IMG/VR virus record: IMGVR_UViG_3300027749_000047
Span: 71,954-135,953 of that record
DNA from: a virus
Strand: one strand, 5' to 3'
DNA: 64,000 nucleotides
Shown here in pieces: positions 27,273 through 40,916 of the stretch. The translations under genes were made by a program, and so were the position numbers. Within the stretch, counting starts at the first letter, position 1. Every line of letters starts with the position of its first letter. The notes beneath the pieces were generated by a model that was given only the letters and a program-made list of their open reading frames with translations, did no database searches and was not told where the DNA came from.

Positions 27273-27706
27273 TTCTTTCTCCTTCTAGGAGCTACAAAAG
27301 CTTTGTCGTCATAATCATCCATGGTTTTTTGCACGTTACCTTTATTGCGTGCTAAAGCCGCTCTTCGTTCAAAACTTGTAAAACCGCCCCATACACCAAA
27401 AGGCTCTTGTTTTTTTAAGGCTGTAATTAAACAGTCACGCTGAACATCACATAGTTTGCAAATAGATTTAGCATAATTTATTTGCTGTGAAGACATTGGC
27501 AAATCGGAGTGTCCATAAAATATTTCTGATGGCATTCCAAAGCAATAAGAATCGTCACGCCAATCTCTGCGTGCCGTATAGCGCCAAGCAAGTGGCGTCG
27601 ATGGCGTCTTGAGGTTTTTTGAGTTGCTGGCAGGCGTCGTAATAATTGGGGTGTTTGGAAGCAAGCCATCTTGCGACAGCTTCTTTGTCCGATCTTCCAT
27701 TACCAA
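27269..27706 (-). CDS. whiB: WhiB family transcription factor
   Basis: Four Cys (C..IFY..C..C.V...C) and GVWGGFTSFERR; start uncertain. Confidence 0.9.
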   Translation of the reverse strand: MVMEDRTKKLSQDGLLPNTPIITTPASNSKNLKTPSTPLAWRYTARRDWRDDSYCFGMPSEIFYGHSDLPMSSQQINYAKSICKLCDVQRDCLITALKKQEPFGVWGGFTSFERRAALARNKGNVQKTMDDYDDKAFVAPRRRKK

Positions 27707-28022
27707 CTACCGCCTTTTTCCATGATGAAGGTCCAATAAATATTACCTCTGATTCTACTCGCTGTGCTGCCACAGCCAAAGCACCGGCTACCATACCCAT
27801 AGATATGCCCGTACGGATGTTGTGGCTAGCGCCCTGAATTGCTTGTTCAATAACAGTCAATTCAGGGCACGTAGCCCACATTAGGTTGGTTAACCAATCA
27901 GACAGGATTAATAGGTTTTTGACGTCATCTTTGCTGGTCAAAATGAGTTCTTCAAAAACCATGTGGCTAGGGTGTGCGAACGCAATTCGTCTTACACCAT
28001 AGTCAACTCCTGCTGCATCCAT
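27555..28022 (-). CDS. ruvC: RuvC-like Holliday junction resolvase
   Basis: GVDYG, VIEQ, PSSWKKAVVGNGRSDKEAV and DAIDA motifs. Confidence 0.85.
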   Translation of the reverse strand: MDAAGVDYGVRRIAFAHPSHMVFEELILTSKDDVKNLLILSDWLTNLMWATCPELTVIEQAIQGASHNIRTGISMGMVAGALAVAAQRVESEVIFIGPSSWKKAVVGNGRSDKEAVARWLASKHPNYYDACQQLKKPQDAIDATCLALYGTQRLA

Positions 28023-36448: not shown

Positions 36449-36865
36449 ATGGCAATATCACGTATTACAGGCACTCAAGCATTTTCACACATGAATGTTT
36501 GGCGTCTTAATGAAAAAAATGGTTTTCTTGGCTACTGCCACAGAACATGTCAGAATGCTTGGGGACTACCTCCTAAGTATGAATCAGCTATTGATGCATG
36601 GAATCATGTACCTAAGCAGCATCGTCATACAGATCCAACTAAGGCTCCTATAGGAAGTCCCCATTTTTGGGAAGGTGGCTTGTATGGGCATGTGGCGCTT
36701 CAGTCAGATAAGAAAGATGTTGTTATTACTACTGATGCCCCTCGCCCTAATTACATTGGTTTAGAGCACATGGATTTCTTTACTAAGAACTGGGGTAAGA
36801 AGTATCTTGGTTGGGCTTCCCAGTACAACGATGTTGATTTGCAGTTGGGTAAGATGCCTTCATGA
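36449..36865 (+). CDS. Endolysin-like Cys/His peptidase (CHAP/NlpC-like)
   Basis: GYCHRTCQNAWG..SAIDAW..APIGSPHFW.GG.YGHVA..YLGW; RBS AAGGAG. Confidence 0.75.
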   Translation: MAISRITGTQAFSHMNVWRLNEKNGFLGYCHRTCQNAWGLPPKYESAIDAWNHVPKQHRHTDPTKAPIGSPHFWEGGLYGHVALQSDKKDVVITTDAPRPNYIGLEHMDFFTKNWGKKYLGWASQYNDVDLQLGKMPS

Positions 36866-37005
36866 TTAAATGGCTCAAGAGTTTAGATTGGGAACTTGTA
36901 TTGTTCAGGTTCATTATTCTTATGACCGGCGCTTGGGCATTATTCAATGCTTTCTTACTAGCTGATTTGTTTTATTGGTACAAGACAGGTCACAATTTCT
37001 GGTAA
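36862..37005 (+). CDS. 47-aa membrane peptide coupled to the lysin (not in the ORF track)
   Basis: ATGA overlap; MIKWLKSLDWELVLFRFIILMTGAWALFNAFLLADLFYWYKTGHNFW. Confidence 0.6.
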   Translation: MIKWLKSLDWELVLFRFIILMTGAWALFNAFLLADLFYWYKTGHNFW

Positions 37006-37154
37006 TATTTTGCTTAGTGTGGGCTTCCTAGGACGTGCCTTTACTAGCCGCAGTATTGTGGCTCCGTATGGAGTACCAATACCGCCTTGCCAAGACCCTC
37101 GTGCACCACATTCTTTCAGTGTTTGTGGGAGCGGGGGTTTTGTGCTACATTTAA

Positions 37155-37226
37155 GGTACTGTAGTCCAATAGAGCAGAGACGGCCAGAAAATGGAGGGAT
37201 TGCAGGTTCAAATCCTGCCAGTACCA
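37155..37226 (+). tRNA. Degenerate tRNA-like element (Phe-like, shortened anticodon arm)
   Basis: Perfect acceptor stem GGTACTG/CAGTACC-A and T-arm GCAGG-TTCAAAT-CCTGC. Anticodon region CCA-GAAAA-TGG is too short. D-loop lacks GG. Confidence 0.6.
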
Positions 37227-37531
37227 CTTCGCTAGTCTATGCACCATGACGTCTGGGAGTATGGGCCTCCATTAAATTGGGCGGCGGAGTCTTTTATGGA
37301 ATAAGAGTTTGTTTATTCCAAGTTATATGATAAGTTTTCTTTTAACAGCACGGATTGCAACTGTGTTGGTGAGTGGCTGAAAAAAGTCTCCTGTTTAGGT
37401 GGGATGATAAAGCACAACGTGGGTTTAGCGGCCTGGACTTAGCGGTCTAAAGCGTTGGTAGGAACAAGGCGGTACATAGGATACCTAAACTTCTCCTTGG
37501 TGGTAACAGACAATCCACCCTTACAACCTTA

Positions 37532-37580
37532 AGGCCCCGTATGCGGACATGATCTGATTGTGACCGGTACGGGGTCTTTT
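37532..37580 (+). terminator. Long hairpin plus U tract
   Basis: AGGCCCCGTA...TACGGGGTCT-TTT. Confidence 0.55.
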
Positions 37581-37717
37581 GTGATTTTAGTAGTGTAGAA
37601 CCTGTGAAATTGGTAGTGTTATATTGTTTACATTGAAATATAACAAAACCACGCTAAGTGTTACATTGTTGCATCTTAGTGCAACACTTTGCTTGGTTAT
37701 GTTGCACCACAATGCAA

Positions 37718-37797
37718 GGGGCAGGAAGGTTTCGACTAGACATTAAAACCGCATGTCGGTAGTGTTTAGGACCAGAGTTCAATTCTCTGCTGCTCCA
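37718..37797 (+). ncRNA. tmRNA tRNA-like-domain-only RNA (mini-tmRNA)
   Basis: GGGGCAG-GAAGGTTTCGAC ... TAGGAC-CAGAG-TTCAATT-CTCTG-CTGCTCC-A. G3.U70 pair present. Only a 32-nt hairpin replaces the mRNA/pseudoknot region. Confidence 0.85.
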
Positions 37798-37823
37798 CAC
37801 GCGGCCAAACAAAGGAGATAAGT

Positions 37824-38294
37824 GTGACAACGCAAACATTAGAGAAGACACTTGATAGGTTTTATTCAAAAACTCAAGTATCTGCAGGTACTGATTGCTT
37901 GAAGTGGGTTGGTGCTATTAATAGCCAAGGTTATGGAAACTTTTGGTATGAAGGTAAGACTGTTTCAGCACATAGGTTTATTTTTGTTATGCGCAAGAAT
38001 GATGGTGAATGGCTAGATAGAAAACTAGTTGTTAGACACACATGTGATACTAGAGATTGCACAAACATTGATCACCTTATTTCTGGTACTTACGGCGACA
38101 ACTTGCAAGATGCTTGGGATAGGAATCGTCGTAGTCGCACGTTAAAGAAAAAGTCTTCTGCAGTTGCTAAAAAATGGAGTGAACACGCTCACGATGTGGG
38201 ACTAGATGATTTGGAAACCCCTACGTTAGAGCAGATACGTACTGCTCAAAAGTTAGCTCGTGAAGTTCTTAGGGAACAAAAAGCGCGTGGCTAG
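37824..38294 (+). CDS. HNH endonuclease (HNH_3-like)
   Basis: C..W.GA..SQGYG.F..SAHR..VRHTCD...C.N.DHL..GT..DN. Confidence 0.88.
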   Translation: MTTQTLEKTLDRFYSKTQVSAGTDCLKWVGAINSQGYGNFWYEGKTVSAHRFIFVMRKNDGEWLDRKLVVRHTCDTRDCTNIDHLISGTYGDNLQDAWDRNRRSRTLKKKSSAVAKKWSEHAHDVGLDDLETPTLEQIRTAQKLAREVLREQKARG

Positions 38295-38355: not shown

Positions 38356-39861
38356 ATGACTGAATCACCTATTTTTAGCCTTGTCAGGCCACCAACCAAT
38401 AAAGAAGAGTTGTGGTGGACTGTTAAAGCGCTGTGGGGTGTTGAACTTCCAAGAGTGCAAGTGTGTCCGGATCACACAGCGCCTTTTGATGCTTTTGCAG
38501 AGGCGTATTTTGGTAATGATTACAACTGGGTGCTTTGGTATGGTTCGCGTGGTACAGGCAAGTCTTACATGCTTGCTTTGCTTGCTTTAACTAAGGCTGC
38601 TTTGCTTGAGATTAACGTAACGCTTCTTGGTGGGTCTATGGCTCAGTCACAAAACATTCATGAGCATGTGGAGTTTTTGACGCAATTTCGTAATGCGCCA
38701 GTGCACGCTATTGAATCAATTATCAAGACACAAATTACTTTTACTGGTGGTAACTGGATTCGTCCTCTACCAGCTTCTCAAAAGACTGTTCGTGGTCCTC
38801 ACCCTCAAATGACTCTGCTTGATGAGATTGACGAAATGGAGCGTAAGATTTATGACGCTGCTATGGGTCAGGCTATGACTAAACCTAACGTGCGTGGCGT
38901 TGAGATTCCTGAAATGGTTGTTGCTTCTTCTACTTGGCAAAACCCTGTTGGCACGTTTCAGTCTGTTATGGATGAAGCTTTGGCTAAGGGTATGCCTGTT
39001 CGTACGTGGTGTTATCGTGAGCAGTTGAAACCTAATGGGTGGATGGATCCTGATTTTATTGAACGTAAACGTATGTCTGTTCCAGCAGAAATGTTTCGTG
39101 TTGAGTATGAACTTGGTGAACCTGCTGGTGGGTCTCGTGCGTTTGATTTGGAAAAGTTAAATAAGGCTTTTGTTGAATTGCAGATTGTTGATGAGCGTCA
39201 TTCTGCTAATGATGATGAGTGGATTTTTGAGCATCCAGTGCCTACTGCTACTTATTCTGCTGGGGCTGATTGGGCAAAAGAGCAAGATAAGACTGTTATT
39301 GCTGTGTTTAGGTTAGATGAGGGTAAGCGCACTCTTGTTTATTATCGCCGGTTTAATCGTATGGATTGGCCTACGATGATTGGTGTTTTTAACAAGGTAA
39401 CTACTGACTATCAGGCTATGGCAGCGCATGATGCTACTGGTATTGGCAATGTTGTTCATGACATGGTTGATGAGCGTGTGATTAAGTTTACGATGTCTTC
39501 TCAGAAGCGTACTGAGATGCTTACTAATTACATTACTGCTGTTGAGCAGGGGCGTTATCGTTTGCCTCGCAATACGCCTGCTTACAATGAGCATAAGTCC
39601 ACTACTGTTGAGGAAGTTTTTGGTGGTGGTGGTTGGAACTCTCATTTGTCTGATGATGTGTGTGCTTTTGCTTTGGCTCATCATGCTGCTGAACGTATGG
39701 CTCCTCCTGCTTCTGGTGAGGGTGTTAAGAAAACTGAATTTGCTCCGGCTAAGTTTAAAGAGATTACTCCTGTCTATGAGGATGATGGGCGTTACGTTAC
39801 GCAGGTTGGTTCAGTGACTGTTAAGGATGACAGTGGTGTTGGAGTTTTTAACCTTTTCTGA
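38356..39861 (+). CDS. terL: Terminase large subunit
   Basis: Walker A GSRGTGKS; Walker B LLDEIDE; nuclease motifs GADWAKEQD, HDATGIG, SDDVCA. Confidence 0.92.
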   Translation: MTESPIFSLVRPPTNKEELWWTVKALWGVELPRVQVCPDHTAPFDAFAEAYFGNDYNWVLWYGSRGTGKSYMLALLALTKAALLEINVTLLGGSMAQSQNIHEHVEFLTQFRNAPVHAIESIIKTQITFTGGNWIRPLPASQKTVRGPHPQMTLLDEIDEMERKIYDAAMGQAMTKPNVRGVEIPEMVVASSTWQNPVGTFQSVMDEALAKGMPVRTWCYREQLKPNGWMDPDFIERKRMSVPAEMFRVEYELGEPAGGSRAFDLEKLNKAFVELQIVDERHSANDDEWIFEHPVPTATYSAGADWAKEQDKTVIAVFRLDEGKRTLVYYRRFNRMDWPTMIGVFNKVTTDYQAMAAHDATGIGNVVHDMVDERVIKFTMSSQKRTEMLTNYITAVEQGRYRLPRNTPAYNEHKSTTVEEVFGGGGWNSHLSDDVCAFALAHHAAERMAPPASGEGVKKTEFAPAKFKEITPVYEDDGRYVTQVGSVTVKDDSGVGVFNLF

Positions 39862-40487: not shown

Positions 40488-40916
40488 ATGGAACTTATTG
40501 CGTCTTTGCGTAAAACATTGGCTAATGTTGTTACTGAGTATTTTCATGCTCATGGGTTTCATTGGAATGTTGTTGGCCCTGAGTTTGCGCAGTTGCATGA
40601 GTTTTTTGAGTCTGTGTATGAAGACATTTATTCTTCGATTGACCCTATTGCTGAGATTTTGCGTAAGTTGAATGCTAAGTCTCCTTTTCGTTTGTCTGAG
40701 TTTATGGCTGATTCTACGATTACTGAGGCTAATCCTGTTGAGGCTTTAGATATGGTTCATGCTTTGAGCATGATGAATACTAAGGTTATTGAGTCTTTGA
40801 ATGAGACTTATGGTTTGGCTAATGATGCTAATGAGCAGGGTGTGTGTAATTTTATTGCTGAACGTATTGATATGCATAAGAAGTGGGCGTGGCAGATGCG
40901 CTCATTGTTGAGTTAG
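40488..40916 (+). CDS. dps: Dps / ferritin-like DNA-protection protein
   Basis: H.FHWNVVGPEF..LHEFFE..Y...D.IAE.LR..K..WQMRS; RBS GGAGG. Confidence 0.92.
   Translation: MELIASLRKTLANVVTEYFHAHGFHWNVVGPEFAQLHEFFESVYEDIYSSIDPIAEILRKLNAKSPFRLSEFMADSTITEANPVEALDMVHALSMMNTKVIESLNETYGLANDANEQGVCNFIAERIDMHKKWAWQMRSLLS

Follow-up and report, generated by a model that had tools for sequence, protein, structure and literature searches.

Trans-translation is the main bacterial pathway of ribosome rescue and protein quality control, and in mycobacteria it is a drug target. In the 64,000-nt stretch of phage DNA analysed here (the window), an initial annotation made from the letters alone had pointed to an 80-nt gene that looks like the two ends of a tmRNA, in normal, non-permuted order, joined without the message between them. 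Such a locus raises the question of whether a tmRNA reduced to its tRNA-like domain (TLD), here called mini-tmRNA, is a genuine gene under selection and, if so, what a phage would use it for.

Genomic setting

The IMG/VR record that contains the window comprises 135,953 bp of DNA from freshwater metagenomes, and self-comparison resolves it into two colinear, related phage genomes of about 68 kb that lie head to tail and are 70–90% identical (genomes A and B, Table 1). Both genome variants are present in one single lake sample, and the two-genome record probably arose when strains living side by side were wrongly joined. Terminase, primase and DnaB are among the viral genes of the record, and the phage of the window has a genome of about 68 kb with 43% GC. 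Near 35.9 kb (window coordinates), the leftward primase and DnaB genes give way to a rightward transcription unit, of which the mini-tmRNA gene is the second element. It is directly preceded by an ORF-poor stretch of about 860 nt (36860–37717), present in genome B only, and directly followed by an HNH endonuclease gene in both genomes (156 aa and 109 aa). A blastn comparison of this 1.2-kb region with cultured phages gave no match. Further downstream, a ferritin-like (Dps-type) gene (40488–40916, + strand) lies inside the structural region, just upstream of a 687-aa ORF.

The ORF-poor stretch also holds two other RNA-like elements. The first (37155–37226, + strand) scores 36.6 bits with the Rfam tRNA model, while ARAGORN is silent on it; it has a perfect 7-bp acceptor stem without G3·U70, a T-arm, and in place of an anticodon arm the sequence CCA-GAAAA-TGG, which has no anticodon loop. 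Neither genome A nor any of the fetched relatives yielded a homologue of this element. Between it and the mini-tmRNA sits a match to the manA RNA motif (RF01745, 37347–37529, + strand; E 3e-12) whose 52.1 bits are below the gathering score of 55.2. With the tRNA-like element, the manA-like match and the mini-tmRNA following one another, the 860-nt stretch specific to genome B resembles a small RNA-gene cluster.

Table 1. Positions of the two genomes in the record and of the features discussed in the window (window numbering unless stated otherwise).
Feature	Position	Strand	Remarks
Genome A	1–68175 of record		
Genome B	68176–135953 of record		window (71954–135953) is the second half of the record
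Small ORF	36449–36865	+	after primase/DnaB, start of rightward unit
−10-like hexamer CACAAT	37708–37713	+	4 nt upstream of G1; candidate own promoter
Mini-tmRNA gene (TLD-only, CDS-less)	37718–37797	+	80 nt, G1 to discriminator A73
Acceptor stem, 5' strand GGGGCAG	37718–37724	+	pairs with 37790–37796
Stemless D-loop GAAGGTTTCGA	37725–37735	+	aligns to GGaUUCGAC consensus of RF00023
P2 module	37736–37769	+	P2 helix, A-rich bulge, capped hairpin, bulged T
P2, 9-bp helix, CTAGACATT with AGTGTTTAG	37736–37744 with 37761–37769	+	covariation
Bulge AAAA (A-rich)	37745–37748	+	
3-bp hairpin CCG-CATGT-CGG	37749–37759	+	5-nt loop
Bulged T	37760	+	
Linker GAC	37770–37772	+	
T-arm CAGAG-TTCAATT-CTCTG	37773–37789	+	
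Acceptor stem, 3' strand CTGCTCC	37790–37796	+	gives G3·U70
Discriminator A	37797	+	followed by CAC
HNH endonuclease gene	37824–38294	+	PHROG HNH families, E 8e-21; Pfam HNH_3 weak
Large terminase gene	38356–39861	+	Pfam Terminase_6C and Terminase_6N; marks start of structural module

A tmRNA without its message

The Rfam tmRNA model RF00023 matches positions 37718–37800 with 61.4 bits (cmscan, E 1.4e-21; gathering score 47). The alignment spans model positions 1–374, includes both model ends and skips 288 internal positions, which bears out the reading of the locus as a phage-encoded TLD in non-permuted order. The alanine identity elements that had been noted are likewise in place: all 7 positions of the acceptor stem are paired, with G3 (37720) and U70 (37794) forming the wobble. 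CCA is not encoded, since CAC comes after the discriminator A. The two strands of P2 are separated by only 16 nt, and within the total of 80 nt neither an mRNA-like domain (resume codon, tag reading frame, stop codon) nor any of the pseudoknots PK1–PK4 is present, as the initial annotation had said. The single-sequence centroid fold equals the consensus of the family described below (z = −3.1 relative to shuffles), and the covariance model of that family, R1, scores the element at 95.1 bits. Of the two tmRNA detectors that had been recommended, cmscan recognised the gene and ARAGORN did not, calling neither a tRNA nor a tmRNA at this place in the window. A canonical tRNA-Ala was considered and rejected: besides the silence of ARAGORN, there is no D-stem and no anticodon arm with a 7-nt loop, Rfam clan competition keeps the tmRNA assignment, and the consensus fold has no anticodon arm.

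Upstream of the gene, the −10-like hexamer listed in Table 1 has counterparts in most close relatives, in which TACAAT, TGTAAT, CACAAT or TAAACT stands 4–9 nt before G1; a generic sigma-70 promoter and terminator scan returned no full promoter and nothing convincing on the + strand. The word TGTTGCA(T/C)C occurs in two direct copies and one inverted copy just upstream of the RNA gene (37667–37717), and three relatives (L018, L025 and L035) have in common ATGTTGC, a −10-like hexamer and GCAA directly before G1. The region with the repeated word may be a promoter or operator.

The inner module

The segment between the D-loop and the linker had originally been drawn as a single 32-nt hairpin, ACTA-GACAT-loop-ATGTC-GG-TAGT. 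This fold has to be given up: the genome A copy breaks the GACAT/ATGTC pairing, and covariation supports the P2 helix, bulge and 3-bp hairpin of Table 1 instead. In the 85 distinct homologues found among the matches listed (see below), compensatory changes occur in 8 of the 9 P2 pairs and in all 3 hairpin pairs, the small stem appearing as CCG/CGG, CCC/GGG, CCA/TGG or CGC/GCG. Within the same set, 77 sequences have a 5' bulge of 3–4 nt and 74 an A-rich one, 78 have just one base as their 3' bulge, and the hairpin loop has 4–5 nt in 68, mostly as CNNG or GNRA. The RF00023 consensus shows the same asymmetry at the P2a/P2b junction, with a 3-nt bulge on the 5' side and a 1-nt bulge on the 3' side, so that the window RNA can be described as a TLD with P2a, the P2a/P2b junction and a 3-bp P2b stump closed by a loop. 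Across these 85 homologues the inner region shows no conserved stop or resume triplet, and hence a cryptic tag frame is absent. The idea that a UAA directly behind P2 serves as an immediate stop ('resume = stop') was also considered and rejected, given that the triplet is not conserved and many members have no stop triplet at that place.

Selection on structure

An IMG/VR pattern scan for the short form that left the acceptor stem unconstrained yielded 27 true elements, 19 of them distinct, on diverse viral contigs. Their acceptor stems covary (GGGGCAG/CTGCTCC, GGGGCTG/CAGCTCC, GGGGATG/CATCTCC, GGGTGTG/CACATCC and others), and G3·U70 is present in every element of this set. For 13 elements, RNAalifold gave a consensus in which the acceptor stem and an 11-nt D-loop precede a 9-bp P2 enclosing an A-rich bulge, a 3-bp hairpin and a single bulged base, followed by the GAC linker and the T-arm, with compensatory changes in 17 of 24 pairs; R1 was built from this alignment, which does not include the published element of Mycobacterium phage DS6A discussed below. 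A broader pattern matched at least 118 viral contigs, and among the matches listed R1 recognised 95 elements, of which 85 are distinct. The search of related contigs proposed together with the initial annotation thus did reveal a form of about 80 nt with covariation.

In the 85 distinct sequences among the matches listed, aligned by fitting to R1, paired cells amount to 95.3%, against 38–49% when the partners are slid by 1–3 columns, and the covariation score reaches 0.70, compared with about 0.10 in the slid controls. Double changes affect 19 of the 24 base pairs, which confirms the earlier claim that the structure is under selection. The T stem is paired throughout (100%), with 4 of its 5 pairs covarying. 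G1-C, G2-C and G3·U are kept in 85 of 85 while pairs 4–6 covary, in a set in which U70, like parts of the D- and T-loops, was prescribed by the second pattern. For G3·U70, unbiased evidence is therefore limited to four sources (the first pattern set, the relatives defined by terminase, DS6A and a single bacterial copy), and every sequence in the sets with U70 unforced keeps this pair. The family is narrow in length (73–82 nt in 82 of the 85, mode 79), and ARAGORN misses 91 of the 95 listed members.

A closer comparison is offered by the copy in genome A, which is 94% identical to that of the window over 84 nt. The flanks of the two copies are unalignable, the genome A HNH ORF (L002:1603–1932) lying beyond DNA alignment with the HNH gene of the window, and the nearby terminase region and genes are about 81% identical. 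The five differences (37747, 37751, 37754, 37757 and 37766) all leave the structure intact: the A-rich bulge and the hairpin loop have one each, two form a compensatory pair by which CCG/CGG becomes CCA/TGG, and a T-to-C change replaces a P2 G·U by G-C. In three other samples, contigs run through the element and its flanks with no indel, and the genome-A variant, with precisely these five differences, is present in a fourth. The window element is a real RNA gene, with selection acting on its structure.

Distribution and carriers

With the neighbouring terminase as the query, 59 related loci were fetched, and among these the element lies upstream of the terminase only in the closest ones (terminase at least 79% identical). 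Every form of tmRNA is missing from one relative with an 80%-identical terminase and from four more distant ones, three of them complete (terminase identities of the five, 62–80%), and the mini-tmRNA is thus an accessory gene. No full-length tmRNA was found at this place in the relatives, nor beside the short one in the complete carriers checked.

Cultured carriers include the Streptomyces phages LuckySocke, GiJojo, pSt2308, Alone3 and BRock, in which the element is embedded in tRNA arrays, co-oriented with the tRNAs and close to an RNA ligase gene. Sites in cultured phages are OR725497 17977–18054, PP725410 17025–17102, NC_048650 97143–97220 and, for DS6A, JN698994 28478–28557. GenBank leaves the element unannotated in LuckySocke, BRock and DS6A and places it under a 'hypothetical protein' CDS in GiJojo (gene 44). 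Among the matches listed, a tRNA lies within 1 kb of 18 of the 95 elements and is co-oriented in 17 of these 18. One viral contig (L194) has two mini-tmRNAs 1.3 kb apart (5–81 and 1317–1392) with the same acceptor stem, one of them with a degenerate T-loop. Outside viral contigs, one of 151 sampled actinobacterial genomes contains a family member (L235:1501–1578, that is G065 contig 13, 64027–64104), with CCA encoded; it adjoins a gene of the phage family PHROG 8200 and probably stems from a prophage or from a phage contig binned with the genome.

As to the host, WhiB is encoded in both genome halves of the record and in 9 of 24 larger carrier contigs, and in control genomes this marker matched only the actinobacterium. 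Carriers with known hosts infect Mycobacterium or Streptomyces; together with WhiB, this identifies the phage of the window as an actinophage. A full-length Corynebacterium tmRNA has the same TLD signature (GGGGCAG, GGTTTCGAC, TTCAATT and CTGCTCC-ACCA), by which likeness the phage RNA is actinobacterial in type. A host search by identical acceptor stem and T-loop across 185,579 species genomes returned no freshwater actinobacterium; the matches were confined to gut Bacilli, Mycoplasma and Muribaculaceae MAGs and a single Corynebacterium.

Relation to known tmRNAs

The initial annotation had supposed that no TLD-only phage gene was known, which does not hold, as 'Mycobacterium phage DS6A (TLD only)' is an entry in Hudson, Lau and Williams (2014; PMC4131195), who describe its sequence as little beyond the TLD; the same RNA is tmID 11587 of the tmRNA Website. 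On R1, built without it, the DS6A element scores 52.5 bits (E 1e-11), and this score, the length of 80 nt and the shared inner module place the window RNA and the DS6A RNA in one family. Common to both are the acceptor stem with G3·U70 and A73, the stemless D-loop, the P2 helix, the T-arm, the AAAA bulge, a CCG-CAyG-CGG hairpin and one bulged base (AAAA-CCG-CACG-CGG-U in DS6A), as well as the absence of a tag ORF and an actinobacteriophage as carrier. They differ in D-loop and linker (GGTGGTCGAC and CAC in DS6A, GGTTTCGAC and GAC in the window), in site (between gp33 and the DNA pol III gene in DS6A, upstream of the HNH and terminase genes in the window) and in background, since the element of DS6A is GC-rich and belongs to a Mycobacterium tuberculosis phage of 60 kb, whereas the window belongs to a freshwater phage of about 68 kb and 43% GC. 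A literature search found no paper on the breadth of the DS6A-type family or on its conserved inner module. Judged by sequence, the window RNA is a further member, not the first, of the TLD-only phage tmRNAs, and belongs to a DS6A-type family that is precedented, large, mostly unannotated and barely charted.

Compared with bacterial tmRNA (ssrA, RF00023; Corynebacterium), the window RNA keeps GGGGCAG, GGTTTCGAC, GGAC, the T-arm with TTCAATT, CTGCTCC-A and the asymmetric P2a/P2b junction; in contrast, about 290 nt with PK1–4, the resume codon, the tag ORF and the stop codon are missing, and CCA is unencoded. Because the mRNA part is absent, the window RNA is unable to perform the mRNA half of trans-translation. 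Full-length phage tmRNAs (those of Bxz1-type mycobacteriophages, Bacillus phage G and the two-piece form of Melnitz) are likewise phage-borne and often lie among tRNA genes (PMC4131195, PMC9004378); they keep the tag reading frame, however, which no member of the DS6A-type family does. The tmRNAs without a CDS in jakobid mitochondria, and the plastid forms of about 65 bp in Mallomonadaceae (PMC11915505), also retain the TLD without a tag reading frame; unlike the window RNA, to which we liken them by layout, they are non-viral and act with nucleus-encoded SmpB in their own compartment. Artificial TLD constructs from trans-translation biochemistry (Shimizu and Ueda 2006, as cited in PMC3895274), which consist of the TLD and a short capped P2 helix and accept the nascent peptide with SmpB and EF-Tu in vitro, are laboratory truncations, whereas the window RNA comes from a conserved gene found in nature and retains the P2a/P2b junction.

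Possible functions

We favour, with modest confidence, the view that the mini-tmRNA is a competitor of host tmRNA through which ssrA tagging is blocked or diverted. In the multistep mechanism that we propose, (i) the RNA would mature like a tRNA, with CCA presumably added by host enzymes because the gene does not encode it; (ii) host AlaRS would charge it with alanine, as the invariant identity elements suggest; (iii) the intact TLD would bind host SmpB; (iv) the RNA would compete with the full-length host tmRNA for SmpB, EF-Tu and stalled ribosomes; and (v) as it carries no message to resume on, host trans-translation would be blocked or diverted, and proteins from stalled ribosomes would be left without the ssrA degradation tag during infection. 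Neither smpB nor a full-length tmRNA, a CCA-adding enzyme, Pth or ArfB was found in the window phage, so that the RNA must use host factors.

The inhibitory step has precedents. In the relevant passage of PMC4131195, which cites Mao et al. 2009, a molecule similar to the DS6A RNA is said to inhibit tmRNA strongly whether chargeable or not, perhaps by titration of SmpB; a passage of the 2025 tmRNA database paper (PMC11915505) attributes inhibition of the endogenous tmRNA in E. coli to the DS6A form itself. The two passages differ as to whether a similar molecule or the DS6A RNA itself was tested. The result was obtained by expression in E. coli, not in actinobacterial infection, and would extend to the window RNA by analogy. 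The gene, its structure, the selection on it and its family membership come from the present analysis; inhibition is reported elsewhere, and the remainder of the mechanism is what we infer.

A non-chargeable variant is reported in the same passage of PMC4131195 to inhibit as well, and pure SmpB titration would thus leave the invariant G3·U70 unexplained. G1-C72, G2-C71, G3·U70 and A73 are invariant while the neighbouring pairs covary, which we read as selection for charging; from the sequences, then, charging appears to be under selection. Both an SmpB/AlaRS decoy and a tag-free rescuer, which the initial annotation had put forward, are reasonable candidate functions, whereas its suggestion of an RNA immune to anticodon nucleases found no support in any test made.

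A tag-free rescuer seems to us a possible but less probable role. The alanine-charged RNA, with host SmpB and EF-Tu, would accept the nascent chain, and the ribosome would be recycled via drop-off and peptidyl-tRNA hydrolase, ArfB or repeated rounds. Under this tentative scheme, the phage would gain rescue capacity, and its truncated proteins would receive alanine and no degradation tag. The strict retention of the alanine identity elements, though charging is not needed for inhibition according to the cited passage of PMC4131195, would be accounted for, and peptidyl transfer to a TLD-only tmRNA has been observed in vitro (Shimizu and Ueda 2006, as cited in a passage of PMC3895274). Some organelles retain CDS-less tmRNAs together with SmpB (PMC11915505), and in Streptomyces phages the gene stands in tRNA arrays beside an RNA ligase gene. 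This 'translation kit' setting of tRNAs and RNA ligase in large Streptomyces phages fits a pro-translation role as well as inhibition. A short protein with an RF-1 domain (ArfB-like) is encoded in 2 of 24 large carriers (L237, G008 86715–86888; L236, G169 27616–27801), both contigs of 115–120 kb, in G008 about 9 kb from the RNA gene. Against rescue, the RNA offers no stop codon or other known means of chain release and its inner loop no conserved stop triplet; the window phage and most carriers have no Pth or ArfB gene; and the sole in vivo effect of a TLD-only RNA reported in the cited passages is inhibition. A variant in which a partner hydrolase is always co-encoded was rejected, with Pth in 0 of 5 records, an RF-1/ArfB-like protein in the 2 of 24 and neither in the window phage.

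If rescue nevertheless took place, which we regard as doubtful, the mini-tmRNA would be the smallest working ribosome-rescue RNA, one that takes the nascent chain and permits recycling without a tag, thereby converting 'rescue and destroy' into 'rescue and keep'. The P2a/P2b junction would in that case be a required contact with the ribosome or SmpB in the smallest functional tmRNA.

We consider it improbable that the element acts outside trans-translation, either as a tRNA-like decoy or sponge that soaks up a host defence enzyme acting on tRNA acceptor ends or aminoacyl-tRNAs, or at the DNA level as an HNH target or packaging signal. Its position directly upstream of the HNH endonuclease and terminase genes in this clade, and the second anticodon-less tRNA-like element 560 nt upstream, would suit such roles; elsewhere, however, the element resides in tRNA arrays or other places away from HNH and terminase genes. 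The tmRNA-specific features that are kept (stemless D-loop, GAC linker and P2a/P2b junction) go beyond a generic acceptor/T minihelix and speak against a decoy of this kind, and the compensatory base-pair changes point to an RNA rather than a DNA site.

That the element is a non-functional remnant, namely a decayed phage tmRNA, an attP fragment of host ssrA or an assembly collapse, is highly improbable even though ssrA is a common integration site whose fragments occur in prophages (PMC9004378, PMC10865867), since both gene ends are present and perfectly paired, covariation is strong, the copies of the two genomes are 94% identical between unalignable flanks and, by the test for decay and collapse set beforehand, no relative has a full-length tmRNA and independent samples contain the same short form. 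The attP variant was rejected for the presence of both gene ends and because no Phage_integrase or Resolvase domain (tyrosine or serine integrase) occurs anywhere in the record.

Significance

Annotation pipelines should gain a model for the DS6A-type family, whose members are invisible to ARAGORN and stand unannotated or as 'hypothetical protein' in GenBank phage records. The family defines, by evolution, a minimal conserved core of tmRNA that consists of the TLD, P2a and the P2a/P2b junction. A compact natural RNA that keeps the part facing SmpB and AlaRS in many actinophages suggests that trans-translation is a recurrent target or tool of phages.
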